64,000 nt of DNA, taken from Acidimicrobiia bacterium. Lineage in GTDB: Bacteria > Actinomycetota > Acidimicrobiia > Spongiisociales > Spongiisociaceae. The notes below the pieces were generated by a model, which made no database searches, had not been told where the DNA came from, and saw nothing but the letters and a program-made list of their open reading frames with translations. Both the position numbers and the translations under genes were made by a program. The stretch is from positions 17,177-81,176 of the forward strand of contig WTGI01000013.1 in assembly GCA_011523635.1 (NCBI GenBank), written 5' to 3'. The first letter of the stretch is position 1. Each line of letters begins with the position of its first letter. This document shows, piece by piece, positions 2,199-48,141 of the stretch.

Positions 2199-3569
2199 AT
2201 GCCGTCCGAGCCCGACCTGTTCTCGGCCGGCCGGGAGAGACGCCGGCGCCGGGTGGCCCCGCTGGCCGACCGCATGCGTCCCAGGTCCTTGCCAGAGGTG
2301 GTGGGCCAGCCCGATCTGCTGGGGAAGGGCGCCGCCTTCCGCGCCATGGTCGAATCCGGCCGGCTGGTGTCCGTCCTCCTCTTCGGACCGCCGGGTACCG
2401 GGAAGACGACCCTGGCCCGGCTCATGGCCTCCGAAAGCGACGCGGCCTTCGAGCAGCTGACCGCGTCCGCTCACGGGGTGCGTGACGTCCGCCGCGTCCT
2501 GGAAGGAGCCGAGCGCCGGCTCGGGGAGGACGGGAATCGAACGGTGCTCTTCCTGGACGAGATCCATCGCTTCAACAAGGCTCAGCAGGACGCCCTCCTG
2601 CCCGGGGTCGAGAACGGCACCGTCATACTCGTCGGCGCTACCACCGAGAACCCGTTCTTCGAGGTCAACTCCCCCCTGATCAGCCGATGCACCCTGTTCC
2701 GCCTGGTTCCGCTCTCCGCTGCCGAAGTGGTCGGGCTGCTCGAGCGGGCTCTGACCGACCGTGAGAGGGGGCTGGGCGCCGCAGGGATGGCGATCGACCC
2801 GGCGGCGGCCGAAGCCCTGGCCGGTCGGGCGGGAGGAGACGCCCGACTGTCGCTCAACGTCCTGGAACTGGCCGCCATCGTGGCCGGCGGCGGAGGACGG
2901 ACCACCATCACGTACCACGATGTGGAGGAGGCCCTCCAGCGCCGCATCATCCGCTACGACAAGAAGGGCGACCAGCACTACGACGTCATCTCGGCCTTCA
3001 TAAAGTCGATGCGGGGCTCCGACCCCGACGCCGCCCTCTACTGGCTCCACACCATGCTGTGGGCCGGGGAGGACCCCGAGTTCGTGGCACGACGGATGGT
3101 CATCTTCGCCTCCGAGGACGTCGGCATGGCCGACCCGGACGCTCTGGTCCAGGCGGTTGCGGCCGCCCACGCTCTGGCGATGGTCGGCCTGCCCGAGGCG
3201 GCCTACAACCTGTCGCAGGCCGCGATCTACCTGGCCGCCGCCCCCAAGTCCGACTCGGTGAAGCGATCGATGGGTGCGACCCGGCGGGCGGTCGACGAGA
3301 CCCCCGCCGCAACCGTCCCCGCCCACCTGCGCTCCACCGGCGGACGGCTGGTGTCGTCCCAGGTGGACGGCATGCCGGCGGGCTACGTGGATCCCCACAC
3401 GGGACCGGGACACCTCGTTCCCCAGCCTTACCTACCGGAGCAGATGGAGGGGAGGATCCTCTACCGGCCCACCCACCAGGGCCGGGAGGCGGGCGTCGCC
3501 GAGCGGCTCGAGGAATGGGACAAGGTCATGGGCCGTCCCGCGCGCAGTACCAACCCGGGCCAGAGCTAG
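2199..3569 (+). CDS. rarA: Replication-associated recombination protein A (AAA+ ATPase RarA/MgsA)
   Basis: Walker A motif LFGPPGTGKTTLARL and an MgsA C-terminal domain; 456 aa. Confidence 0.9.
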   Translation: MPSEPDLFSAGRERRRRRVAPLADRMRPRSLPEVVGQPDLLGKGAAFRAMVESGRLVSVLLFGPPGTGKTTLARLMASESDAAFEQLTASAHGVRDVRRVLEGAERRLGEDGNRTVLFLDEIHRFNKAQQDALLPGVENGTVILVGATTENPFFEVNSPLISRCTLFRLVPLSAAEVVGLLERALTDRERGLGAAGMAIDPAAAEALAGRAGGDARLSLNVLELAAIVAGGGGRTTITYHDVEEALQRRIIRYDKKGDQHYDVISAFIKSMRGSDPDAALYWLHTMLWAGEDPEFVARRMVIFASEDVGMADPDALVQAVAAAHALAMVGLPEAAYNLSQAAIYLAAAPKSDSVKRSMGATRRAVDETPAATVPAHLRSTGGRLVSSQVDGMPAGYVDPHTGPGHLVPQPYLPEQMEGRILYRPTHQGREAGVAERLEEWDKVMGRPARSTNPGQS

Positions 3570-3609
3570 CCGGTGGTTGGTGGTCAGTGGTTTTCAGCAT
3601 AATCTAACA

Positions 3610-3649
3610 TCAACTAGCAACTAGGAACTAGCAACTAGAAACTAGGAAC
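3610..3649. repeat. Tandem heptamer repeat (CAACTAG-like) x5.5 in the rarA-alaS intergenic region
   Basis: Direct read: CAACTAG CAACTAG GAACTAG CAACTAG AAACTAG GAACT. Stop codons are present in all six frames. Confidence 0.8.
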
Positions 3650-3668
3650 TGGCGCTAACCTGCATCGG

Positions 3669-6290
3669 ATGCGAGCCAATGCCATCCGGCGCGCCTTCAC
3701 CGACTTCTTCGCCGAGCGCCGCCACGTTGTCCGGCCGTCCGCGTCGTTGATCCCCACCGATCCCACCTTGCTGGTGACCAACGCCGGAATGGTCCCGTTC
3801 AAGCCCTATTTCCTGGGCGAGGAGGAGCCGCCCTGGCCCCGGGCGGTCAGCATCCAGAAGTGCGTGCGGACGGTCGACATCGACATCATCGGCACCACTG
3901 CTCGCCACCTGACCATGTTCGAGATGCTCGGGAACTTCTCGTTCGGTGATTACTTCAAGGAACTGGCCATTCGCTACGCCTTCGACTTCGTCACCGGGCC
4001 GCTCGGTCTGGATCCCGAACGTCTCTGGTACACGGTCTACAAGACCGATGACGAGGCGGAGGAAATCTGGATCGACTCGATAGGGGTTCCACCTGATCGG
4101 GTGCAGCGGGGCGGTAAGGACAACTTCTGGCAGATGGGCATTCCCGGTCCGTGCGGTCCGTGCTCGGAGATCTTCATCGACCGGGGCCCTGCCTACGGGC
4201 CTGACGGAGGCCCGATCGGTGGTGGCGAGGACCGGTTCGTGGAGCTCTGGAACCTGGTCTTCATGCAGAATATCCAGGATGAGCCCTATCACGTTGTCGG
4301 CGAAATCCCCGCCAAGGGGATCGATACCGGTACCGGGCTGGAGCGTCTGGCCATGATCCTCCAGGGAGTGGACACCCTCTTCGAGGCCGACTGCGTCCAT
4401 GACGTGCTGGCGGCCGCGTCGGGCGCCCTGGGCCGGACCTATGGAGAGGATGAACGGGTCGACGTGACGCTTCGCCTGCTCGCCGACCACGCCCGCGCAT
4501 CCACGTTCCTGATCGGCGACCGCGCCCTACCCGGAAACGAAGGCCGGGGTTACGTGGTGAGGCGCCTGATCCGTCGCGCGGTCCGCCACGCCTGGCAGCT
4601 GGGTAGCGAGAGCCTCATCATGCCCCGCCTGGCCGGGGTGACCGCCGACATCATGGAGGACGCCTACCCGGAACTGAAGGCCGACCTCGACTTCATCCAG
4701 CATGTCTTCGAGCGGGAGGAGTCCCGATTCCGGCGCACCCTCGCGGCCGGCACCCAGATGCTGGACGAGGCGCTGGTGGGTTCGGAGCCGGGCGGTGCCG
4801 TGTCCGGCGCTCTGGCCTTCAAGCTGCATGACACGTACGGCTTCCCGATCGACCTCACCCGGGAGATCGTGGAGGAGCAGCAGCGCGCGGTGGACCTGGA
4901 CGGATTCGAGGCCGAGATGGCCGCCCAGCGGGCCCGGGCCAAGGCCGCCTGGAAGGGGGGTGCGGAGGCGGTCCGCGTCGAGTCCTACAAGCGGATCCTC
5001 GACACCATCGGCCCCACCGACTTCCTGGGCTACATCAAGGATGATACGCCCGCCCTGATCCTCGCCATCCTCCGTGAGGGGGAGCTGGTGGAGAGGGCCG
5101 AGGAGGGTCAGGAGGTGGAAGTCTTCCTGGACAGGTCGCCCTTCTATGCCGAGGCCGGCGGGCAGGTGGGTGACGTCGGGCTGATCGAGTCGGTTACCGG
5201 ACGGATCGAGGTGGGCGACACGCAGGCGGCCGTGACCGGCTTGCACGGCCACCACGGCAGGGTGACGAGCGGCTCCGTCCAGACCGGCCAGGAAGTGGAT
5301 GCCCGTATCGACAGCCCCAGGCGAGACCGCATCCGCAAGGCCCACACCGGCACGCACCTTCTTCATTGGGCGCTCCGGGAAGTCATAGGGGGGCACGCCA
5401 ACCAGGCCGGTTCGCTGGTCCAGGACGGGCGCCTCCGGTTTGATTTCAACCACTACACGGCGGTGCCCGCCGAAGAACTCGGCGAGGTGGAGCAGTTGGT
5501 CAACCAGCGGGTAGTGGACAACCACCGGGTGGGCCTGCTCGAGACGTCCAAGGACGAGGCCGAGGCGATGGGGGCGCTGGCCTTCTTCGGCGACAAGTAC
5601 GGTGAGCGGGTGCGGGTGGTCTCGGTGGGCGACTTCTCGGTCGAGTTCTGCGGAGGCACCCATGTGGGCAGCTCGGCGGAGGTAGGGCCGCTGCTGGTCA
5701 CCTCCGAGTCCTCCATCGGATCGAACGTGCGCAGGGTGGAGGCTCTGACCGGTATGGCGGCCTACTCCCATGCCAGGGAAGCAAGGGAGCAACTGACCGA
5801 CGTAGGTCGTTTCCTCGGCCTGTCGATGTCGGAGGTTCCGGCAGGAGTGCGCCGGCTGGCCGAGCGGGCCGACGCCCTCCAGAGCGAATTGGATCAGCGC
5901 CGCCGGCAGGAGAGGACTGCGATCGCCGCCGATCTGGCCGGCGCCGCCCGGCGTACCGGGGATACCTCGTGGCTGGTGGCCGAACTCGACGATCATGCCC
6001 CGGTGGCGTTGCGCCAGGTGGGAGCGCAGGTCAGGGACCGGCTCGGGTCCGGTGTCGTGGTACTGGGTAGCCGGGCTGGCGGCAAGGGGGCGCTGGTCGG
6101 CCTGGCGACCCGTGATCTCGTCGACCAGGGTATTTCGGTGGCCGACCTGGTGCTGGTGGGCGCCAAGCTCCTCGGCGGAGGCGGCAGTCGCGATCCCGAA
6201 CTGTCACAGGCAGGCGGACCCAGGGGCGACAAGGTGGGCGAGGCTCTGGACGCGATTCGGGAGGCGGTGGCACGCCGTCTGAGTGCCTGA
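3669..6290 (+). CDS. alaS: Alanyl-tRNA synthetase
   Basis: 873-aa ORF with class II AlaRS editing and catalytic motifs, including the HTGTHLLH zinc-binding motif. Confidence 0.95.
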   Translation: MRANAIRRAFTDFFAERRHVVRPSASLIPTDPTLLVTNAGMVPFKPYFLGEEEPPWPRAVSIQKCVRTVDIDIIGTTARHLTMFEMLGNFSFGDYFKELAIRYAFDFVTGPLGLDPERLWYTVYKTDDEAEEIWIDSIGVPPDRVQRGGKDNFWQMGIPGPCGPCSEIFIDRGPAYGPDGGPIGGGEDRFVELWNLVFMQNIQDEPYHVVGEIPAKGIDTGTGLERLAMILQGVDTLFEADCVHDVLAAASGALGRTYGEDERVDVTLRLLADHARASTFLIGDRALPGNEGRGYVVRRLIRRAVRHAWQLGSESLIMPRLAGVTADIMEDAYPELKADLDFIQHVFEREESRFRRTLAAGTQMLDEALVGSEPGGAVSGALAFKLHDTYGFPIDLTREIVEEQQRAVDLDGFEAEMAAQRARAKAAWKGGAEAVRVESYKRILDTIGPTDFLGYIKDDTPALILAILREGELVERAEEGQEVEVFLDRSPFYAEAGGQVGDVGLIESVTGRIEVGDTQAAVTGLHGHHGRVTSGSVQTGQEVDARIDSPRRDRIRKAHTGTHLLHWALREVIGGHANQAGSLVQDGRLRFDFNHYTAVPAEELGEVEQLVNQRVVDNHRVGLLETSKDEAEAMGALAFFGDKYGERVRVVSVGDFSVEFCGGTHVGSSAEVGPLLVTSESSIGSNVRRVEALTGMAAYSHAREAREQLTDVGRFLGLSMSEVPAGVRRLAERADALQSELDQRRRQERTAIAADLAGAARRTGDTSWLVAELDDHAPVALRQVGAQVRDRLGSGVVVLGSRAGGKGALVGLATRDLVDQGISVADLVLVGAKLLGGGGSRDPELSQAGGPRGDKVGEALDAIREAVARRLSA

Positions 6291-8844: not shown

Positions 8845-9585
8845 GTGCCGCTCTACCTGGTCGCGGGAGTTCTGGGCCTGTTTGCGGGCCGACTGCTGGT
8901 GAGCCTGATCCGGGCCGAGCTGGAGCGGGCGCCGTTCAGGTCGGCATTGGCCTGCCGTCCGATCTGCGGCTGTCCCGTCCGACCGGCGGACTTCGTGCCT
9001 CTCTGGTGGTGGGCGGGAAGCGTGGACTTCTGTCCACGATGCCACCGGCCGGCCGGAGCTTTCTACCGGTTGGTGGAGCCGGTGACTGCAGTTGCCTGGG
9101 CCGGGACGGTCGGGTTGGTCGGCGTGCGGTGGACCCTGGCATCGTTTCTCTGGATGGTGACGGTGACGGTGGCGCTGAGCTTCGTCGATCTCCGGAGCTA
9201 CCGCCTTCCCAACCGGGTGCTCGTACCCGGCACCGCGGTTGGTTTGCTACTGCTCTCGGGCGGCGCGCTTCTGGACGGTCGGATCGGCGACGTGCCGGAA
9301 GCTTTGGCCAGCGGCCTCGGTTACTCCGTCGCGCTGCTGGTCCCGGCGCTGGCGACCCGAGGAGCCATCGGGATGGGCGACGTCAAGCTGGCCCTCCTGC
9401 TGGGGCTGTTCGCCGGCTACAGCGGCTGGGCAACCGCCGTGGCGGCCCTGGTGGGCGCGTTCCTGCTGGCCGGAGCAGTGGGCGTCCTGCTGCTGGTCCT
9501 GCGCCGCATCACCCGCCACGATCACCTGCCGTTCGGCCCCTTCATGGTCGCCGGCGCCTGGTTCGCGATAGCTCTTGGTTTCTAG
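8845..9585 (+). CDS. Type IV prepilin peptidase (A24 family)
   Basis: Multi-TM protein with GMGDVKL and PFGPFM motifs, plus an N-terminal Cys-rich region (CRPICGCP...CPRC). GTG start. Confidence 0.8.
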   Translation: MPLYLVAGVLGLFAGRLLVSLIRAELERAPFRSALACRPICGCPVRPADFVPLWWWAGSVDFCPRCHRPAGAFYRLVEPVTAVAWAGTVGLVGVRWTLASFLWMVTVTVALSFVDLRSYRLPNRVLVPGTAVGLLLLSGGALLDGRIGDVPEALASGLGYSVALLVPALATRGAIGMGDVKLALLLGLFAGYSGWATAVAALVGAFLLAGAVGVLLLVLRRITRHDHLPFGPFMVAGAWFAIALGF

Positions 9586-9593
9586 TTCCCATA

Positions 9594-9635
9594 TAACTAT
9601 CAACTATTAACTATCAACTAGCAACTATCAACTAG
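9594..9635. repeat. Tandem heptamer repeat (CAACTAT/CAACTAG) x6 in the peptidase-argS intergenic region
   Basis: Direct read: AACTAT CAACTAT TAACTAT CAACTAG CAACTAT CAACTAG. Confidence 0.8.
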
Positions 9636-9661
9636 TGATTGCTGTATCCTGCCGGGTTCGT

Positions 9662-11425
9662 ATGGGCCTTCTCTCGGATCTGACCAGGATCGTGGCGGCC
9701 GGCTTCGAAGCCGCCGGTCTCGATGCCTCGTTCGGCGGCGTTCAGGTCTCGGATCGTCCCGACCTGGGCCAGTTCCAATGCAACGGCGCGCTGGCCGCCG
9801 CTCGGAGCGCCGGTCGTAGCCCTCGCGACATAGCCGGGGAAGTGGTGAGGTGGATCGAGGGCGACCACAGGCTCGCTTCGGTTTCGATCGCCGGGCCGGG
9901 TTTCATCAACCTGACCGTGACCGGTCGGACCCTCGCCGACGGCGTGGACGCCATGGCGCGGGACGAGAGGTTGGGGGTGCCCCCGGTCCGGCAACCGCTT
10001 AACGTGATAGTGGACTATGCGGGGCCGAACGTCGCCAAGGCGATGCATGTCGGGCACCTTCGGGCCACGATCATCGGGGACACGCTCAAGCGGCTGTTCC
10101 GCTTCGCCGGACACGAGGTGCTGGGAGACGCCCACTTCGGTGACTGGGGCCTGCAGATGGGCATGCTCATCGTGGCTACCCGCCGGCGCCATCCCGACCT
10201 GGCTCACTTCGACGGATCCTACGAGGGTCCCTACCAAGACCCCCTCGACGTCACCCTGGCCCATCTCCAGGAGTGGTATCCGGAGATGGCCCGGCAAGTC
10301 GCCGATGACGAGGCGGTGGCCGCGGAGGCCCGGCTTGCCACCACCGAGCTCCAGTCGGGCCGGCCCGGGTACGTGGCCATCTGGGAGCACTTCGTCCGGG
10401 TGTCCCGTGCCTCCCAGGAGCAGGACTTCTCCGACCTGGGGGTGGAGTTCGACCTCTGGTACGGGGAGAGCACCGTCCGGGATCTGCTTCGACCGCTGGT
10501 CGATGACACCCTTGCCCGGGGGATCGCGGTCCGTTCGGAAGGAGCGGTCGTGATCGACGTGAGCCGGCCTGACGACAAGGCCGAGATCACGCCCCTCGTG
10601 CTGGAGACCTCCCACGGGGCCTTCCTCTACGGCACCACCGACGTGGCCACCATCCAGATGCGGGTCTCGGAACTCGGGGCGGACCTGATCCTCTACGTCG
10701 TCGACTCCCGCCAGTCCTACCACCTCGAGCAGGTGTTCCGGGCCGCCCGCCGGGCAGGCTTGTCCGGCGGGGCAGTCATGGAGCACATCGGATTCGGAAC
10801 CATGAACGGGCCGGATGGAACCCCTTTCAAGACGCGTGAGGGCGGCGTGCTCAGGCTGGGAGATCTGATCGAGACGGTTACGGAGGCCGCGGCGGCCCGC
10901 CTGGAGGAGTCGGATCTGGCAGCCCGGTATTCCGGGGCCGAGCGGGAGCTGATCGCCCGCCAGGTCGGTATCGCCGCCCTCAAGTTCGGCGACCTGGTCA
11001 ACAACCGCACCTCCAACTACGTCTTCGACGTGCGCCGCTTCACCGCGCTGGAAGGTAAGACCGGTCCCTACCTGCAGATGGCGACCGTGCGCATGGATTC
11101 GATCCTGGCGCGGGCCTCCCGCCAGGGATTGGCGCCGGGTACCGTCCTGCCGCCGCGCCACGAGACGGAGACCAGGCTCGTGCTACGCCTCCTCCAGCTA
11201 CCCGAGGTGATCGACCGGGCCATTGAACTGCGCGCCCCCAACCATCTGGCTGAGTTCGCCTACGAGGTGGCGGCCGACTTCAGCCGTTTCTACGAGGCCT
11301 GCCACATCCTGACCGAGCCCGACCCCGGGCTGCAGTCCTCATGGTTGGGGACGGTCCGGACCACGCGCCGGGTGCTGGAACTCCTGCTCGACCTGCTGGG
11401 TATCGAAGTTCCGGCTCGCATGTAG
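9662..11425 (+). CDS. argS: Arginyl-tRNA synthetase
   Basis: Class I HIGH motif (HVGHLRATIIGD) and a DALR anticodon-binding C-terminus. ATG 9662 (MGLLSDL) is preferred; the track start is 9635. Confidence 0.9.
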   Translation: MGLLSDLTRIVAAGFEAAGLDASFGGVQVSDRPDLGQFQCNGALAAARSAGRSPRDIAGEVVRWIEGDHRLASVSIAGPGFINLTVTGRTLADGVDAMARDERLGVPPVRQPLNVIVDYAGPNVAKAMHVGHLRATIIGDTLKRLFRFAGHEVLGDAHFGDWGLQMGMLIVATRRRHPDLAHFDGSYEGPYQDPLDVTLAHLQEWYPEMARQVADDEAVAAEARLATTELQSGRPGYVAIWEHFVRVSRASQEQDFSDLGVEFDLWYGESTVRDLLRPLVDDTLARGIAVRSEGAVVIDVSRPDDKAEITPLVLETSHGAFLYGTTDVATIQMRVSELGADLILYVVDSRQSYHLEQVFRAARRAGLSGGAVMEHIGFGTMNGPDGTPFKTREGGVLRLGDLIETVTEAAAARLEESDLAARYSGAERELIARQVGIAALKFGDLVNNRTSNYVFDVRRFTALEGKTGPYLQMATVRMDSILARASRQGLAPGTVLPPRHETETRLVLRLLQLPEVIDRAIELRAPNHLAEFAYEVAADFSRFYEACHILTEPDPGLQSSWLGTVRTTRRVLELLLDLLGIEVPARM

Positions 11426-12204: not shown

Positions 12205-13448
12205 CTCACGGCAGCCTGTCTATCGGCTCGCTGCAGTGCTTCCCAGTAGATCTCCACCGGATGAGCGACCCGGGCCGCGTGCCCGAGTTCGCTCAGATAC
12301 GAGCGCAGCTGGATCTCGCATCCCGGATTGGCGCTGGCCACGAGAGGTGCTCCGGTCGCTTCCACCTGTTCCGCCTTCGACGAGCCGAGGCGGCGCGACA
12401 TCTCAGGTTCCAGCACGCTGTAGATGCCCGCCGCGCCACAACACAGGCCACTCGGGTCGATCTCGACCACGGTCAGACCGGCCGCGGCCAGGATTGCCCG
12501 GGGCTGGTCGGTAATCCGTTGCACGTGCCGGAGATGGCACGGGTCCTGCACCGCCACCAGGCCGCCATCGGCGCTCAATCGGGGAAGCCTCCCGTCGGTG
12601 ATCGCCTCCGCCACCACCTCGTTCACGTCGGCAACCCTGGCGGCGAGTTCCTCCCCGCCGTCAACCCAATGGTCGTACTCCTTCATGTGGGCCCCGCATC
12701 CGGCCGAGTTGACGACCACCAGGTCCGCACCCCGGAAGGCCGCCATATTCACGGAGGCCATCTTCCGGGTGTCATCCGCCCAGCCGTCATGCGCGGCGAG
12801 CGCTCCGCAACAGGTTTGACTCCGGGGTGAGACGACCTCCCACCCGGCCGCCGCCAGCAGCTCGACGGTGGCCGTGTGTACATCGCCGAACCAGGCGTCC
12901 ATGACGCAACCGGCCACCAGAGCGGCCACCCCCCGTTTCTCCCCCTCCGCGGCCCTGATCCTCCCCACGATCGAGGGAGGCCTTGCTTTGAGCGGTCGGA
13001 GCCCGGTCAGGTTGCCCCGGATCCGGCGCGGCGCCACCCTGGTCAGCTGGAGCGACTGGGCGATCGATGCGGCCAGCGTCCCCAATCGAACCGCCGTCCG
13101 GCTACGCAGCAGGCGGGCCGTCACCAGCCGCCGGAGCCGGCGGTCGATTCCTGAGGTCTGGGCGGCTATCTCGGCTCTCGCTCCCTCCATGGCTCGGCCG
13201 AACGGAACGAACGACGGGCAGACGACCTCGCAGGCGCGGCACTGCAGGCATGCCCCCATGATCTCCTCGAAGCGGCCGTCCACGGGTCGTCCGGCGGCGA
13301 CTGCCGACATCGCGGTCAGCCTCCCTCGCGGCGAGGCGGTCTCGAGTCCAGTCAGCCGGAAGGTGGGGCAGCTGGGCAGGCACAGCCCGCACTGGATGCA
13401 TGAGGAGAGCTCGTCCTCTCGTGGCGCGTAGCGGGTAACCCAACTCAT
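12201..13448 (-). CDS. glcF: Glycolate oxidase iron-sulfur subunit (CCG-domain Fe-S oxidoreductase)
   Basis: Two 4Fe-4S ferredoxin motifs (CIQCGLCLPSCP, CLQCRACEVVCP) and C-terminal CCG domains. Confidence 0.85.
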   Translation of the reverse strand: MSWVTRYAPREDELSSCIQCGLCLPSCPTFRLTGLETASPRGRLTAMSAVAAGRPVDGRFEEIMGACLQCRACEVVCPSFVPFGRAMEGARAEIAAQTSGIDRRLRRLVTARLLRSRTAVRLGTLAASIAQSLQLTRVAPRRIRGNLTGLRPLKARPPSIVGRIRAAEGEKRGVAALVAGCVMDAWFGDVHTATVELLAAAGWEVVSPRSQTCCGALAAHDGWADDTRKMASVNMAAFRGADLVVVNSAGCGAHMKEYDHWVDGGEELAARVADVNEVVAEAITDGRLPRLSADGGLVAVQDPCHLRHVQRITDQPRAILAAAGLTVVEIDPSGLCCGAAGIYSVLEPEMSRRLGSSKAEQVEATGAPLVASANPGCEIQLRSYLSELGHAARVAHPVEIYWEALQRADRQAAVR

Positions 13449-19164: not shown

Positions 19165-19211
19165 GAGTGTGGGATGACTAGAAACAGGTTGTGTAGCTCA
19201 ACATCCATCCC

Positions 19212-21833: not shown

Positions 21834-22226
21834 TTAGCCCAGGTTCCCGCTCCGGGCAGCCACGATCTCTATCTCGACGCGGAACCCGCCCGGCAGGGCG
21901 GACACCTGCACTGCGGACCGGGCCGGGGGGTCGGCATCGAAGTACTCGGCGTACACCTCGTTGATAGCTGCGTAGTCCCCGATGTCAACCATGAAGATGG
22001 TGGTCTTGACGATGTCGCCGTAACCGAGGCCGATGTCGCCCAGCATGGCGCCGATGTTGTTCATGACCTGGCGGGTCTGCGCAGAGCTGTCACCGTCCTC
22101 TCGCCCACCCTCCGGCACGAGCGCCACCTGACCCGATAGGAACACCAGGCCGGCAGCCTCGATCGCCACCGTGTACGGACCGATGGCGGGTGGGGCGCTG
22201 GGGGTTTCAAGAGTCCTCTTTGCCAT
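21834..22226 (-). CDS. RidA/YjgF family reactive-intermediate deaminase
   Basis: 130 aa; PAIGPYTVA...AARSAVQVSALP family motifs. Confidence 0.8.
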   Translation of the reverse strand: MAKRTLETPSAPPAIGPYTVAIEAAGLVFLSGQVALVPEGGREDGDSSAQTRQVMNNIGAMLGDIGLGYGDIVKTTIFMVDIGDYAAINEVYAEYFDADPPARSAVQVSALPGGFRVEIEIVAARSGNLG

Positions 22227-22335: not shown

Positions 22336-22363
22336 CAACTAGCGACTAGCGACTAGCGACTAG
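22336..22363. repeat. Tandem heptamer repeat CAACTAG + (CGACTAG)x3 overlapping the erpA stop codon
   Basis: Direct read: CAACTAG CGACTAG CGACTAG CGACTAG. The last TAG is the erpA stop on the minus strand. Confidence 0.8.
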
Positions 22364-22722
22364 CTAAAGCTATTCCCGCAGCCGCACGACCTGCTGACGT
22401 TCGGGTTGTTGATGGCGAAGCCCGCCCCCATGAGGCCGTCCTGGTAGTCCAGGGTCGAGCCGCGCAGCAGGTCCACGCTCTGGCGGTCCACCAGCACGTC
22501 GACGCCTTCGAACTCCTCGACGACGTCGGCGTCGGACCTATCGGAGTCGAAGAACATCTCGTACGAGAATCCGGAACATCCTCCGGGGCGGACGGCCATG
22601 CGTAGGGCGAGGGCCGGATCCCCCTCGGAGACCAGCAGCTCACGCACCTTGGCAACCGCTCCGTCGGTCAGCGTGACCGCCCGCATCGGTCGGCGCGTGG
22701 TGATGTTGACGAGCTGTTCCAT
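22360..22722 (-). CDS. erpA: Fe-S cluster insertion protein (HesB/IscA/ErpA family)
   Basis: C-terminal 120 aa of the track ORF 22360..23352, starting MEQLVNITT; A-type carrier motifs GGCSGFSY and SCGCGNSF. The upstream part of the long ORF is antisense to mrp upstream DNA. Confidence 0.8.
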   Translation of the reverse strand: MEQLVNITTRRPMRAVTLTDGAVAKVRELLVSEGDPALALRMAVRPGGCSGFSYEMFFDSDRSDADVVEEFEGVDVLVDRQSVDLLRGSTLDYQDGLMGAGFAINNPNVSRSCGCGNSFS

Positions 22723-25313: not shown

Positions 25314-28419
<3,106 letters not shown>

Positions 28420-28425
28420 TAACAG

Positions 28426-28453
28426 CAACTAGCAACTAGCAACTAGCAACTAG
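28426..28453. repeat. Tandem heptamer repeat (CAACTAG)x4 between convergent ligA and a hypothetical gene
   Basis: Direct read. The last TAG is the stop codon of the minus-strand ORF 28450..28851. Confidence 0.85.
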
Positions 28454-40415: not shown

Positions 40416-40418
40416 GGA

Positions 40419-41678
40419 CTAATCATCTAGTGCCCGATCAAGGGCGTTGATCAACCGGTCGATCTCGCCTTCGGTGTTGTAGTGGATGAAGGACATCCTC
40501 AGCACGCCGGGCTCCGCAGGTATCCGCATCTCATCGAGGAGGCGCGGGGCGTAGAAGTCCCCGACGCCGACCATCATCCGGCTACGGACCAGTGACTCCG
40601 CGACTTCCGCGACCGGGCGTCGCACCGGGACGATCGAGACGGTGGGGGCCCGCCGGGTGGCGTCGGTCGGGCCGGCCACCCGTACGTCGGCCCGCCCTTC
40701 CAGGTACCGCAGCAGCCGGTCCGCCAGGTTCGTCTCGTGGGCCCGGAACATGTCATGGACCGCCCGGCCTCGCTCCACCGGGGTCGCAGAGGGTCCTCCA
40801 TGGTGGGTATACAGGTCGTCCAGGTAGTCGATCACCCCTGCGCACGCCGCCACCTGGGCATGGTCTGGTCCGGCCGGCACCAGCTTGAAGCGGGGCTGGT
40901 CGGCCACGAAGTAGTGGCCCTCGTTCCCGAGCTGACCCGCCAGGTCGCGGCGGACGTACATCACCCCCTGGTGCGGACCCCACGTCTTGTAGGCGGAGAA
41001 GAGGTAGACATCGACCCCCAGTGCCCCTATGTCGGGTAGGCCGTGGGGTGCGTAGGACACCCCGTCGACCACCACCCGGGCGCCGACTTCCGCCGCCCTC
41101 GCCACCACATCGGTGACCGGGTTGATGGCGGCCACCACGTTCGAGGCGTGCGGGAAGGCGACCAGCCTGGTGCGCTCGGTCATCAACCTGTCGAGATCGG
41201 CTAGGTCCAGGGTTCCCTTCTCCGGATCCACCCGCCACTCCCGTACCACGATCCCCGTGGCCTCCAACCGCCTCCAAACACCGGCGTTGGCCTCGTGGTC
41301 CTGCGTGGACGCGACGATCTCGTCCCCGTCCCGCCACATCGACCGGAACGCCCGGGCCAGGACGTAGGTGTTCTGCGAGGTGGACGGCCCGAAATGGATC
41401 TCATCCACCCCCACGCCCGTCCACGCCGCCATTCGTCGGTAGGAGTGCTCCATCGCCTCGGTGGCCTCGATCGAGAGCGGGAAGGCATGATCGGGTTGTA
41501 CCTTGGTGCGCCGGTAGAAGCCGGTCAGGCGGTCGATCACCTGCCGGCAGGCGTAGGATCCGCCCGCGTTCTCGAAGTGGGCCCACCCGGCGAGACGGGC
41601 GTCGGAGAAGGCGGGAAACTGGCGGCGGGCGAACTGTACGTCCAAGGGCCGCAGCGAGATTTCCGGCTCGGGGTTCAC
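40419..41678 (-). CDS. Aminotransferase class V-fold PLP-dependent enzyme (cysteine desulfurase-like)
   Basis: 419 aa; SAYKTWGPHQG PLP-lysine-like motif. Confidence 0.65.
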   Translation of the reverse strand: MNPEPEISLRPLDVQFARRQFPAFSDARLAGWAHFENAGGSYACRQVIDRLTGFYRRTKVQPDHAFPLSIEATEAMEHSYRRMAAWTGVGVDEIHFGPSTSQNTYVLARAFRSMWRDGDEIVASTQDHEANAGVWRRLEATGIVVREWRVDPEKGTLDLADLDRLMTERTRLVAFPHASNVVAAINPVTDVVARAAEVGARVVVDGVSYAPHGLPDIGALGVDVYLFSAYKTWGPHQGVMYVRRDLAGQLGNEGHYFVADQPRFKLVPAGPDHAQVAACAGVIDYLDDLYTHHGGPSATPVERGRAVHDMFRAHETNLADRLLRYLEGRADVRVAGPTDATRRAPTVSIVPVRRPVAEVAESLVRSRMMVGVGDFYAPRLLDEMRIPAEPGVLRMSFIHYNTEGEIDRLINALDRALDD

Positions 41679-43505: not shown

Positions 43506-45533
43506 TTACACCGGCAGTTCGTGCCTCTGCTCGGCGACGACGAACTTCAGCTTGTTGTTCACCGACGACGACGGGAAGGAGCTGATCTTCAGCTTGTAGT
43601 TGGCGGGAGAGATCTCGAGCCTGAAATGGTGAACGAGCAGCAGCAGATGGATCGCCAGGTGCAGGGATGTCCACCGGGACCCCAAACACGTATGGGTACC
43701 CAGACCGTACGGCGCGTAAGACGACCCGAGGTGCTCCTTGCGCGGAGGCAGGTAGCGATCGATGTCGAACGAGAAGGGATCGGGGAAGACGTCCTCCATG
43801 TAGTGCGTGGCCGTTTGGGCAATCAGAACCCGCGCTCCCTCCGGCAGCTCGTATCCCTCGACGGCGCACGTATTCATCACGTTTCGATATGAGGCCGGCA
43901 CGATCGGGTAGAGACGCAGGCACTCCATGATGAACCGGCGTGTGATGTCGATCCCTGGCCCGGTGAGTTCGTCACGATCCGGCGTCCCCTTGGCGAACAG
44001 GGCGTCTGCCTCATTGCTAATACTCTCGTGGAACTCGGGCTGCGACAACATCGCGTAGATGATTAGGCCGAGTTGATCACCGACATACATGCTTGCGATC
44101 AGCGCCGCCGAGAGCACGAAGGGCAGGTTCGACTCCGGGAGGAACTGCCGATCGCTCGCGTGCATGCTCAGCAGGTCATCGGCGAGGTCGCGAGGGCACC
44201 CAGCCCGCTGGGCGGGTGTGTGGCTACTCAGGACTCGTTCCATGACCTCTCCGACCAGCTTCGCCCGGCGCTTCATTGCGGGCGTACGCAGCATCAACTT
44301 GGGCAGGTTCCCGATTACATGGGTCTGCAGGGCTCTTTCCTTGAATTTGTGCAGGTCCGCGACGACATCCTGAGTATCGATGCTGACCATGGCGGGCGAC
44401 AACGTTGAATTGACCAACTGCCTGCACATCGTCTTTGCAGGGAGCTTGTCACCGATAGACCAAGCCGCCATGTAGGCCCGGGCGGTGGAGTAGCACTCAT
44501 CCAGCCGAGTCTCCAACCTGGTGCGGGAATAGGCCGGTTGCATGGACTTGCGGTACCGGAAATGATCCGCACCGTCCAGGGTGGGCAGGATTCCTGATCC
44601 TCCGTATACCTTTTCGAAATCCTCCAGATAATCTCTGGATCTCAGGTACATCCGCCCATGCCGATGTGCCCAGTGATTCATCTCGGGGCCGGCGAGCAAA
44701 ATCATCGGGCCGGTCAAGGGCGGGCGGAGCTCGAACACCGGTCCATATTCTTTGGCAAGCTCTGCAAAGAAAGCCGGTAAATTACCTTGGCGAGCGGGCC
44801 GGCTGCGCAGCAACCTACGAAGCGGGACAACCGGAATCGGCTTAGCGAAAGCGGAAGACCTGAACAACGACACAGACAGGTTATGGCCAACTGCTGCGGC
44901 GATGGACCTGCCTATCAGGTCCATCTTGGAGATGAACTCGACACGCTTCTCCGACTCTTCATCGAGTTCGAATATGAATCGTAGGACATCACATGTATTG
45001 ATAAGACAGATTATGATGATATCTCTGGGGTCCGGAATCTCGTTAGCAAAGATTGCTCTGCTGAGACGTGTCTTTACGAAGTCAACGGCAGTACCTTCTC
45101 CAGATGTGGCGTAAGGACCCTTCTGCCATGCGCCCCGGGCCAGCGACCAGAAATCGCCGTCATGGTGCCGGAGTATCTCCAGGTCGACCAGCCGGTCAAG
45201 GGTCAAGTCGATAATCGATTCCGCGCGCGGGGCGAGACGTTCGATCCAGTACTGGGCGTCTCGTTGAACCGGTTCGGCCGCGATTTGCTCGAGGATAGGA
45301 TCTAGGGCAGGATCGCCCGTTTCCGTTCGGTCCAGGAGGATCAACGAATCCATATCCGTATCGATACGGGATAGGAGCGACAGCTCTCCCAGCACGCCTC
45401 CGATAACGGCACAGTTCAAATCCCACCCAGGAACCTGCCGGAAGTAGCCACTCTCCTCGTTGAGGAGTGTGAGGACGAGTTCGTCGACCAAACTGAGCTT
45501 CTGAGTGACCGCACTGTCGGCGGTTAGAGTCAT
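43506..45533 (-). CDS. Cytochrome P450 with N-terminal GPP34/GOLPH3-like domain (fusion protein)
   Basis: N-terminal ~220 aa match the GPP34 pattern (LSLVDELVLTLLNEESG...AVIGGVLGELSLLSRI). The C-terminus carries P450 EXXR (ECLR), PERF-like DPFSFDIDRY and a heme loop YGLGTHTCLG. This part of the gene appears visibly AT-richer by eye (not computed). Confidence 0.75.
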   Translation of the reverse strand: MTLTADSAVTQKLSLVDELVLTLLNEESGYFRQVPGWDLNCAVIGGVLGELSLLSRIDTDMDSLILLDRTETGDPALDPILEQIAAEPVQRDAQYWIERLAPRAESIIDLTLDRLVDLEILRHHDGDFWSLARGAWQKGPYATSGEGTAVDFVKTRLSRAIFANEIPDPRDIIIICLINTCDVLRFIFELDEESEKRVEFISKMDLIGRSIAAAVGHNLSVSLFRSSAFAKPIPVVPLRRLLRSRPARQGNLPAFFAELAKEYGPVFELRPPLTGPMILLAGPEMNHWAHRHGRMYLRSRDYLEDFEKVYGGSGILPTLDGADHFRYRKSMQPAYSRTRLETRLDECYSTARAYMAAWSIGDKLPAKTMCRQLVNSTLSPAMVSIDTQDVVADLHKFKERALQTHVIGNLPKLMLRTPAMKRRAKLVGEVMERVLSSHTPAQRAGCPRDLADDLLSMHASDRQFLPESNLPFVLSAALIASMYVGDQLGLIIYAMLSQPEFHESISNEADALFAKGTPDRDELTGPGIDITRRFIMECLRLYPIVPASYRNVMNTCAVEGYELPEGARVLIAQTATHYMEDVFPDPFSFDIDRYLPPRKEHLGSSYAPYGLGTHTCLGSRWTSLHLAIHLLLLVHHFRLEISPANYKLKISSFPSSSVNNKLKFVVAEQRHELPV

Positions 45534-45666: not shown

Positions 45667-46437
45667 ATGGCTCAACTACAACTGCGTCCACTGGGTGTCG
45701 GCGAAATCGTCGACGCCACCTTCACCGTCTACCGCCGCCGCTTCGGCCCGATGTTCGCCATCGCGCTGATGCTCGTGTTCATCCCTTTCCTCGTCAGCCT
45801 GGTCGGGGGCTGCAGCCTTGACTCGGGCGGCATCACTACGTGCACGTCTCCCATCGGTTGGCTCGGGTATTACGTAAGCGTTGTCGGTTCGTTCGTGGCG
45901 AGCGTGGCTGCCGTCCTCGTGGCTGCCGGAGCGTATGCAGATGTCCCGTCCGACTGGCGGAGCGCGATGAACACCGGAATCCGGAGGATCGTCCCGATCA
46001 TCGCGGCGACGATCGTGGCCGGGGTTTTGATCGCCATCGGATTCCTGCTCGTGATCATCCCCGGGATCTTCCTTGCCGTGTCGCTGGCGGTGGTCTGGGA
46101 GGCTCTGATCATTGAAGATGTCGGTCCGATGGAGAGCATCAAGCGGTCGTGGCGCCTGGTGGCGGGCGAGCGCTGGCGGGTGTTCGGCGCCGGCTTCCTC
46201 GTCATAGTCCTGTCGGCCATCTTCTTCGGGATCGTCTCGGCCGTGGTCTGGCTCATCCTCTCGACCGGCCTCGGCGTGAGCGGTGGGATTGCCGGCTACC
46301 TCGTCCAGCAGGTCGCCACCCTGCTGTCGGTCCCGCTGACGGCCGCGCTCGGCACGGTCATCTATCTCGACCTGCGGGTCCGCAAGGAGTCGCTGAGCGC
46401 AGCCGAACTCGCCGCCGCTCTGTCCGAACAAGGCTGA
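45667..46437 (+). CDS. Hypothetical polytopic membrane protein
   Basis: 256 aa, about six TM helices. Confidence 0.55.
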   Translation: MAQLQLRPLGVGEIVDATFTVYRRRFGPMFAIALMLVFIPFLVSLVGGCSLDSGGITTCTSPIGWLGYYVSVVGSFVASVAAVLVAAGAYADVPSDWRSAMNTGIRRIVPIIAATIVAGVLIAIGFLLVIIPGIFLAVSLAVVWEALIIEDVGPMESIKRSWRLVAGERWRVFGAGFLVIVLSAIFFGIVSAVVWLILSTGLGVSGGIAGYLVQQVATLLSVPLTAALGTVIYLDLRVRKESLSAAELAAALSEQG

Positions 46438-46526
46438 TTCTCAACTAGCCTCCGAATCCGAGCAACATCCCACCGTTGATCGACGGTTCTGCGCAACCAC
46501 ATGGAACGCGTAGGATCGGAACCAGC

Positions 46527-46600
46527 GGCCCCGTCGTCCAGCCGGCCTAGGACGCTGGCCTTTCAAGCCAGAAACGCGGGTTCGAATCCCGTCGGGGCCA
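46527..46600 (+). tRNA. tRNA-Glu (anticodon UUC)
   Basis: Manual cloverleaf: acceptor GGCCCCG/CGGGGCC, anticodon stem CTGGC/GCCAG, loop CTTTCAA, T-loop TTCGAAT, discriminator A. No encoded CCA. Confidence 0.85.
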
Positions 46601-47959: not shown

Positions 47960-48031
47960 GCGGGCCTGATCGGGAGTGGTGTAATCGGCAGCACGACAGG
48001 TTCTGGCCCTGTTAGTAGGGGTTCGAGTCCT
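47960..48031 (+). tRNA. tRNA-Gln (anticodon CUG)
   Basis: Manual cloverleaf: acceptor TCGGGAG/CTCCCGA, D-stem GTGT/GCAC, anticodon stem ACAGG/CCTGT, loop TTCTGGC, T-loop TTCGAGT. Confidence 0.85.
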
Positions 48032-48068
48032 CTCTCCCGAGCGGTTGGTATCATTCGCCACACGCAGT

Positions 48069-48141
48069 GGCCCCGTCGTCTAGGGGCCTAGGACACCGCC
48101 CTCTCAAGGCGGAGACGCCAGTTCAAATCTGGTCGGGGCTG
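48069..48141 (+). tRNA. tRNA-Glu (anticodon CUC)
   Basis: Manual cloverleaf parallel to E. coli tRNA-Glu: acceptor GGCCCCG/CGGGGCT (G1-U72), anticodon stem CCGCC/GGCGG, loop CTCTCAA, T-loop TTCAAAT. Confidence 0.85.

Follow-up and report, generated by a model that had tools for sequence, protein, structure and literature searches.

A lineage-specific family of intergenic heptanucleotide repeats in a clade of Acidimicrobiia

The DNA analysed here is a stretch of 64,000 nucleotides (nt) from contig WTGI01000013.1 of an Acidimicrobiia bacterium, called the window in what follows, and it carries short tandem arrays of a 7-nt unit, CAACTAG and its variants, at several places between genes. These arrays are genuine and non-random and form a lineage-specific intergenic repeat family. 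Comparison with the same sites in close relatives suggests that the arrays are young and vary in the number of their units. We consider it probable that they are lineage-specific heptanucleotide simple-sequence repeats of variable number, which come from slippage-type processes, are tolerated only between genes and have at most secondary effects on their neighbours.

Heptamer arrays between the genes of the window

The arrays were detected by Tandem Repeats Finder (TRF) together with direct reading of the sequence. TRF reports a period of 7 at four sites (3.9-5.7 copies, scores 54-66, in a window of about 68% GC), all of which fall within 25 kb and agree within 1-3 nt with the positions given by the first-pass annotation of this DNA (Table 1). 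Array 1 consists of six units, namely CAACTAG twice followed by GAACTAG, CAACTAG, AAACTAG and GAACTGG. Array 2 also has six units, which are of the AACTATC type and mix CAACTAT, TAACTAT and CAACTAG. A degenerate array lies at 3572-3592 and is of CCACTGA or CCACCAA type on the minus strand, and one solitary CAACTAG stands outside any array. The position of this single copy had been given as 46449-46455 and is corrected in Table 1, while two supposed ACTAG-rich stretches (40417-40433 and 19174-19182) turned out to be isolated CTAGs at gene boundaries without any repeat.

The exact heptamer CAACTAG occurs 11 times in the window, always on the plus strand, against a mean of 1.66 and a maximum of 6 in dinucleotide-preserving shuffles. 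All five CAACTAG loci of the window are thus on one strand, and the cumulative GC skew rises. The arrays are confined to the DNA between genes supported by Pfam, and their overlap with these genes is limited to stop codons, which bears out the first-pass view of a genome-specific intergenic family. The majority of the window's intergenic regions are free of arrays, and no further array was found in about 18 kb past the window ends in the same strain. The GC content of the window ranges from 58 to 71%, and the array-bearing gaps are AT-rich islands with a GC fraction of 0.29-0.47, against about 0.6-0.7 in intergenic DNA. The tetramer CTAG, noticed earlier to be scarce inside coding regions, is under-represented in the window, with 55 copies observed and 89.8 expected; 15 of the 55 lie within arrays, and at least 11 others are the TAG stops of long open reading frames (ORFs) rich in third-position G+C.

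An artefact of assembly or of a synthetic construct, which would have overturned the first-pass interpretation, has practically no chance of being the explanation and is ruled out by the alaS array. Array 1 is no assembly artefact, because four other assemblies of independent origin (ENA ERZ27234774, ENA ERZ27234777, JGI 3300033112 and Logan SRR10694907) show it and its flanks with 100% identity, and diverged versions of it are present in relatives.

Each of the four arrays was computed to contain stop codons in each of the six frames, as had been claimed, and two of them donate the stop codon of a minus-strand gene. The first is the gene of an IscA/ErpA-type Fe-S protein, whose C-terminus reads CGCGNSFS* and whose TAG stop is the last CTAG of array 3 (22360-22362, minus strand). 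The second is a convergent minus-strand gene of 133 amino acids (aa), whose stop (28450-28452) is provided by the final CTAG of array 4. Read in the direction of the gene that they terminate, arrays 3 and 4 are (TAGTYGC)n. Array 3 is also located 110 nt upstream of ridA (minus strand).

Variation at the same sites in related genomes

Orthologous regions were taken from ten related contigs (given L numbers here) with a nucleotide identity to the window of 76-91%. Variation in length or unit is seen at all four array sites: across relatives that are 83-91% identical to the window, these sites carry 0, 1, 2, 3 or 5 units, or another unit. The comparison with related genomes that the first-pass annotation had proposed thus returned 0-5 units or switched units at orthologous sites. 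At the Fe-S gene stop and in the ligA gap, the relatives compared are 88-91% identical to the window. The Fe-S gene stop has four units in the window, two in L416 (GAACTAG CAACTAG), one in L415 (TAACTAG) and none in L417 and L418, which have just ...CTAGCTGAAGC at this place. The ligA gap holds four units in the window, five in L416 (CAACTAT three times and CAACTAG twice), about three in L417 (CAACGAA, CAACTAT, CAACTAG), two in L415 and none in L418.

The sites ahead of the two aminoacyl-tRNA synthetase genes vary in the same manner. Between the prepilin peptidase gene (pilD) and argS, the window has (CAACTAT/G)6 and L124 (91% identity) has (CCACTGC)5 between near-identical flanks, while L125, L126, L127 and L419 have no array there. 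At the alaS site, L124 (91%) has a diverged CTAG-type array, L125 has (CCACTGG/TCACCGG)~7 with (GTGGTCA)4.4 before it, L127 has CGACTGG/CAACTGG units, and the array is absent in L126, L422 (91%) and L419 (88%). A pattern scan of metagenomes for the alaS site matched four contigs, two of which were orthologous and both of these without an array.

Arrays were also found in relatives at other gene ends. In L419 (reverse complement of 12532-12645), (GGCAGTG)9.4 and then (CGACTAT/CAACTAT)4 follow directly past the TAG stop of the Nfu gene, and the counterpart in the window is a plain 24-nt spacer. In L124, (TAGTTGC)2.7 begins at the argS stop codon. Arrays beginning at a TAG stop are therefore those of the Fe-S gene and the 133-aa gene in the window, of argS in L124 and of Nfu in L419. 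In both L124 and L419 the orientation of the arrays is mixed within a few kb.

Because both unit number and unit sequence differ at orthologous sites, the arrays look like young repeats of variable number that arise, grow, shrink and disappear in a clade whose DNA identity is about 90%. Judged by where they stand, arrays seem to nucleate again and again at two kinds of place, either at a TAG stop (on it or immediately behind it) or immediately upstream of a -10-like box.

Some of the array-bearing intergenic sites are also hot spots of larger insertions in relatives. In L125 (7540-10000), three extra genes including a MarR regulator lie between rarA and alaS, and L418 (1430-2665; 12047-12455) has an insert of about 400 nt past ligA and, within this 22-kb locus, an IS110 transposase gene some 7 kb upstream of ligA.

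None of the units CCACTGC, CCACTGG and CGACTGG yields a stop codon, whichever frame is read. Since orthologous arrays of these units are stop-free, six-frame stops are not the conserved property of the arrays and belong to the CTAG variant alone. This comparison bears on the suggestion of translational insulation in the first-pass annotation, by which the arrays would be selected to halt ribosomes that leave a gene in any frame of a GC-rich, stop-poor genome, and so to uncouple neighbouring genes. The six-frame stops in four of four window arrays, the two real gene stops among them and the AT-richness of the arrays amid GC-rich intergenic DNA fit such a role. However, the orthologous arrays in L124, L125, L127 and L419 are stop-free in every frame, close relatives have 0-2 units or none, and the genes of the many relatives without an array at these sites stop normally. 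Most intergenic regions of the window do without an array as well, and arrays of a similar kind are found in genomes with 32-45% GC, in which stop codons are abundant. Insulation as the purpose of the element is thus not supported and decidedly improbable.

In the explanation that we prefer, that of simple-sequence repeats made by slippage, arrays would be born and resized in steps of 7 nt by slipped-strand mispairing or unequal exchange. One type of birth site would be directly on or after a TAG stop, with the stop plus 4 nt as the unit, and the other immediately ahead of the next gene's -10-like box. Arrays would survive only between genes, since a TAG-containing unit repeated every 7 nt wrecks any reading frame, and the six-frame stops would be a by-product. 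Effects on the adjacent genes would be secondary and modest. Candidate effects are an altered sequence or spacing ahead of the predicted promoters of alaS and argS and, at the ends of the Fe-S gene and of the 133-aa gene, reserve stops together with a weak hairpin; the minus-sense (CUAGUYG)n past these two minus-strand genes is computed to form a hairpin of -11 to -13 kcal/mol without a U-tract.

Several observations weigh against this explanation. The copy number of the alaS array is unchanged across five assemblies of the same strain from different samples, so that the array cannot be called highly unstable over short times. An array is retained just upstream of the alaS -10-like box in genomes of 78-91% nucleotide identity (AlaS 82-97%), and this retention could be due to selection. 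The strongest objection comes from the units themselves. Twelve of the 13 consensus units of the clade, which represent about nine independent loci, match C-N-A-C-T-N-N in some rotation or strand, and position 6 is a purine in 12 of the 12 fitting units, giving the core C-N-A-C-T-R-N. A random heptamer matches C.ACT.. with a probability of 0.04-0.055; the core pattern was picked after viewing the data, which makes the exact significance soft, and the excess is still very large. The sole misfit to the strict C.ACT core is the degenerate array at 3572-3592, which is off by one base. Slippage on local sequence predicts arbitrary units and does not explain one core at about nine loci, nor does it explain the switch at the argS site, where three of the seven positions changed in every unit between near-identical flanks. 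The shared core and this unit switch therefore point to a founder that spread between loci, to sequence-preferring mutation, or to selection by a factor reading the core. We infer that something sequence-specific shapes the family, either a founder unit that spread from locus to locus or a core-reading factor.

If a founder spread, the arrays may be an actively propagated repeat, in which some dedicated process copies a founder heptamer into further intergenic sites and the family behaves like a tiny mobile element. Candidates for such a process are template switching between dispersed arrays and a templated polymerase or reverse-transcriptase-like activity. Apart from the one core at about nine independent loci, it is in favour of propagation that the two unit types CCACTGC and CNACTAT come up again at separate loci of separate strains (at argS in L124 and at Nfu in L419), that entire arrays have been swapped between near-identical flanks, and that close relatives differ in whether they have an array at a site. 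On the other hand, the surroundings of the window arrays showed neither an enzyme gene that goes with them nor a target-site duplication or a terminal structure, the series of 0, 1, 2 and 4 units at one site resembles growth in situ, and the roughly 18 kb flanking the window hold no further arrays. Active propagation is accordingly rated as improbable. Inspection of the flanks in the window for a shared flanking sequence or a carrier mobile element revealed none, and this possibility was rejected.

The alaS and argS upstream regions and the gene neighbourhood

Arrays 1 and 2 are forward-oriented and end 16-26 nt upstream of the ATGs of alaS (3669) and argS (9662). The longest ORF of argS starts with a GTG at 9635 that falls within array 2, and by comparison with relatives the true start is most likely the ATG at 9662; such arrays can mislead gene callers in this way. 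Between array and ATG, both genes have a conserved motif. The alaS motif CTAACCTGC is kept in the window and in L124, L125, L126, L127, L419 and L422, and the sequence further upstream is not kept, while the argS motif CTATCCTGCC is kept across six loci. A scan of the 25 nt upstream of the two ATGs detected no Shine-Dalgarno sequence besides a chance AGGA in the alaS array at -25. A sigma-70 consensus scan of 3400-3800 gave no match, and no promoter or terminator consensus was found around array 1. Leaderless mRNAs are common in Actinobacteria. The two motifs would be read as holding a -10 box of the TANNNT type for leaderless or nearly leaderless mRNAs, and with this predicted box arrays 1 and 2 would lie just upstream of the core promoter.

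In every relative examined, the form CTA[AT]CCTG(C) stands 7-11 nt before the alaS and argS starts (3654-3668 and 9643-9661 in the window). It may be the -10 box of leaderless mRNAs or a control element shared by aminoacyl-tRNA synthetase genes.

The arrays next to these putative promoters bring in the possibility of a cis-regulatory binding array, in which a DNA- or RNA-binding factor would read the C-N-A-C-T core every 7 nt and tune the adjacent transcription or translation. The factor could be a transcription factor, a nucleoid protein, or a single-strand binder of the cold-shock or S1 type, as has been proposed for TAACTGA repeats. It agrees with such a role that the core is kept across arrays and strains while the other positions drift, that the -10-like boxes next to arrays 1 and 2 are conserved and belong to two aminoacyl-tRNA synthetase genes, and that several relatives have an array at the alaS site. 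Likewise, arrays of (NAACTAG)n in other phyla tend to face the nearby start codon (see below), as MacGregor reported for TAACTGA, and the deletion of promoter-proximal heptamers altered the regulator-dependent activity of the recO promoter in Nostoc constructs (bioRxiv 10.1101/2022.06.06.494920). Yet relatives that are equally close have no array at the alaS site (L422, L419) or at the argS site (L125, L126, L127, L419). Arrays 3 and 4, the array after argS in L124 and that after Nfu in L419 stand at gene ends or between convergent genes and not at promoters, the orientation is mixed inside single loci (L124, L419), and no protein emerged as a candidate binder. We regard a binding array as unlikely, though with a chance that is far from negligible. 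The first-pass annotation had also named a recombination hotspot as a possible role, and the arrays may be one.

Promoter-adjacent repeats whose unit number varies between related strains also recall contingency loci, where the gain or loss of 7-nt units would switch the downstream gene by phase variation, as in the promoter repeat tracts of pathogens. The alaS array, however, is identical in five assemblies from different samples, the adjacent genes (alaS, argS, ligA and Fe-S assembly) have housekeeping and not surface or variable functions, and two arrays are at gene 3' ends. Phase variation is very improbable.

A broader claim would join the sequence-specific ideas: either a C-N-A-C-T binder every 7 nt or templated copying that seeds TAG stops and promoter-adjacent sites makes or maintains the arrays of the clade, and perhaps also the ACT-containing heptamers of cyanobacteria and Beggiatoaceae. 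The arrays would then be a dispersed regulatory or mobile system and not passive microsatellites. We put this forward as a speculation with a small chance of being right.

Other candidates were tried and rejected. An orientation tied to replication, as for primase sites or polar motifs, does not agree with the two orientations within a few kb in L124 and L419 or with a Thermoguttaceae locus that is mixed within 8 kb. A HutP-like RNA site (UAG plus a 4-nt spacer) does not agree with orthologous arrays without TAG, and a Rho-loading site is unlikely as CAACUAG has no YC dinucleotide. A structured RNA or terminator was dismissed as well: the folding of the arrays on either strand is not better than that of shuffles (z -1.6 to +0.6), no terminator pattern is present around array 1, and at the Rfam gathering threshold the window yields three tRNAs, none of them at arrays.

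The neighbouring genes were checked by Pfam and by the gene calls of related loci and are collected in Table 1 with the other features. By the relatives of its AlaS and LigA the uncultured host groups with Acidimicrobiia; these relatives make up a graded series of uncultured genomes, the named ones being 'Acidimicrobiia bacterium' or 'Actinomycetota'. The gene order aspS-rarA-alaS-ruvX-mltG-aroE is one that we take to be actinobacterial, as in the Rv2552c-Rv2572c region of Mycobacterium tuberculosis. Away from the arrays, positions 43506-45533 (minus strand) encode a 675-aa protein with GPP34 and cytochrome P450 domains, at a GC fraction of 0.58 versus about 0.68 elsewhere; this fusion is unusual and may have been acquired horizontally.

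Table 1. Heptamer arrays, predicted upstream boxes, neighbouring genes and RNA genes in the window.
Feature	Position	Strand	Remarks
Array 1	3611-3652	+	Between rarA stop (3567-3569) and alaS; TRF 3611-3650, 5.7 copies
Array 2	9595-9635	+	Between prepilin peptidase stop (9583-9585) and argS; TRF 9595-9634, 5.7 copies
Array 3	22336-22366	+	CAACTAG, three CGACTAG, then CTA; TRF 22338-22364, 3.9 copies
Array 4	28424-28453	+	Four CAACTAG; TRF 4.3 copies; occupies the whole 30-nt gap between ligA and the 133-aa gene
Degenerate array	3572-3592	-	(GGTGGTT)3, as GGTGGTT GGTGGTC AGTGGTT; TRF score 28
Solitary CAACTAG	46442-46448	+	No array; 5 nt past the stop of gene 45667-46437
TAACCT, -10-like TANNNT box	3656-3661	+	7 nt before alaS ATG; part of conserved CTAACCTGC
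TATCCT, -10-like box	9645-9650	+	11 nt before probable argS ATG; part of conserved CTATCCTGCC
RarA/MgsA	2199-3569		Pfam
AlaRS (alaS)	3669-6290		Pfam via gene calls of related loci
A24 prepilin peptidase	8845-9585		Pfam
ArgRS (argS)	9635-11425		Longest ORF; Pfam
RidA	21834-22226	-	Pfam
IscA/ErpA-type Fe-S protein	22360-22722	-	Pfam
LigA	26377-28419		Stop 28417-28419; Pfam
tRNA gene	46527-46600		Rfam
tRNA gene	47970-48041		Rfam
tRNA gene	48069-48141		Rfam

Known heptamer repeats and the wider distribution of the unit

Genome-specific intergenic heptamers are already on record in other bacteria, so that the first-pass remark of not recognising a described element finds no support. In cyanobacteria, Mazel et al. 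reportedly described in 1990 the short tandemly repeated repetitive (STRR) heptamers. Like them, the window arrays are genome-dispersed, non-coding tandem heptamers with few preferred units. The units STRR1-3 of heterocystous cyanobacteria (CCCCAGT, TTGGTCA and CAACAGT) differ from those of the window, which belongs to another phylum and in which the arrays are shorter and much less numerous. When reverse-complemented, STRR1 and STRR3 (ACTGGGG and ACTGTTG) contain ACTG, as do the CCACTGG and CGACTGG of the clade, and the GTGGTCA of L125 is one base from the TTGGTCA of STRR2, which implies no homology.

The MIRU-VNTR loci are another precedent, being actinobacterial intergenic repeats of variable number that reach at their ends into the stop and start codons of the genes on either side. 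Their units are 40-100 bp long and encode short ORFs in phase with the neighbours, whereas the window unit is 7 nt and out of phase.

In a Beggiatoaceae genome, 169 sets of TAACTGA were described and further ones were noted in Cyanobacteria and Bacteroidetes; the sets are mostly forward-oriented, stand just upstream of start codons without a ribosome-binding site, and were proposed to act in translational regulation via S1, cold-shock or CsrA-type proteins (MacGregor, 2015; PMC4679880). The resemblance to the window is considerable. Both have a tandem 7-nt unit with AACT and a stop triplet in common (TAACTGA and NAACTAG), many dispersed intergenic sites per genome, sets often interrupted by related 7-mers, forward-frame stops that confine the repeats to intergenic DNA, and some forward-oriented members just before start codons that have no ribosome-binding site. 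The differences are as clear. The window units are CAACTAG, CGACTAG and CAACTAT, TRF detected no TAACTGA array in the window, and TAACTAG served in that study only as a shuffled control without repeats (PMC4679880). Moreover, the window host is an actinobacterium of 68% GC, only two of the four window arrays face a start (at 16-26 nt versus about 1 nt) and the other two stand on stops in the opposite sense, and the CTAG of the window yields stops on both strands.

Another pair of cases is GGGAATC in Xanthomonas, with about 180-185 intergenic arrays per genome, and GGGGA(C/T)T in Nostoc, where the position is mostly kept between sister species, length and sequence are highly variable, and inverted pairs occur (Rehm et al., 2015; PMC4692102). 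As in these repeats, some unit positions are fixed in the clade and others are free. The core sequence differs, and the window units of CTAG type, with at most two consecutive G on either strand, cannot form G-quadruplexes. Among the arrays of the relatives, those of CCACTGC alone qualify, on the complementary strand: their G-rich strand (GGGCAGT)n, found in L124 and at the Nfu site of L419, has the G3-N4 spacing of a quadruplex motif.

The Calothrix STRR heptamers are cited in both of these papers (PMC4679880 and PMC4692102). According to the accounts there of Mrazek (2007), heptamers are the commonest long simple repeat of 5-11 nt in many prokaryotes, lie in intergenic DNA and are attributed to polymerase slippage, and Actinobacteria are among the repeat-rich genomes in the summary given in PMC4679880. 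Long simple repeats are a statistical class without a defined element, and a shared core across loci is not predicted by it. The window arrays show all four traits of a genome-specific intergenic heptamer class (LSSR or STRR-like), namely a tandem 7-nt unit, several loci, a non-coding position and variation. They are a further case of this documented class, with units of their own and a new host at the phylum level. A literature search for the literal string CAACTAG gave only primers and unrelated sequences.

The unit itself is widespread. In a scan of prokaryotes with one genome per species, the pattern AACTAG-N-AACTAG-N-AACTAG matched at least 120 stretches. The matches listed come from many phyla, among them Planctomycetota, Acidobacteriota, Bacteroidota, Cyanobacteria and the candidate phyla radiation, with 3-18 units and a host GC fraction of 0.32-0.70. 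Among the matches listed, 23 arrays at most 25 nt upstream of a start codon are forward and 9 are reverse (p=0.02 in a crude ORF-based test), and about as many arrays adjoin stop codons and often provide the stop. In some hosts, (NAACTAG)n arrays at separate loci share lineage-specific flanks, for example 'ccgcg..agcgcg' upstream and 'actaatccctac' downstream; this was seen in Thermoguttaceae (L015), Selenomonadaceae (L019/L040/L083) and Ohtaekwangia (L020/L068), and these arrays of other phyla may be part of larger repeated elements.

A pattern of the same design gave 37 stretches for AACTAG in the IMG/VR viral contigs, and the composition-matched controls ACATAG, GATCAA and AAGCTA gave 21, 42 and 67. 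At least in viral contigs, (NAACTAG)n is thus not globally special, and the candidate of a universally conserved element was rejected on these similar counts. The broad spread of (NAACTAG)n can therefore be argued to be a general background of heptamer repeats. What is distinctive is the concentration of (NAACTAG)n and of variants that share its core in this clade. The published unit AACTGA gave at least 120 stretches in the same contigs, often with several arrays per contig, versus 21-67 for the others, and TAACTGA-like repeats are seemingly unusually common in phage-like contigs (L165-L284).

Heptamer repeats have been noted since 1990, at first in cyanobacteria and later in Xanthomonas and Beggiatoaceae, and the present clade is a compact natural experiment on their origin and function. 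In close uncultured genomes, the same sites are empty, hold 1-5 units or hold another unit, always with one conserved core. Should a binding factor or a copying mechanism stand behind this core, a common but little-noticed kind of non-coding DNA in bacteria would find its explanation. Otherwise, the arrays are still useful as strain-level markers in metagenomes.

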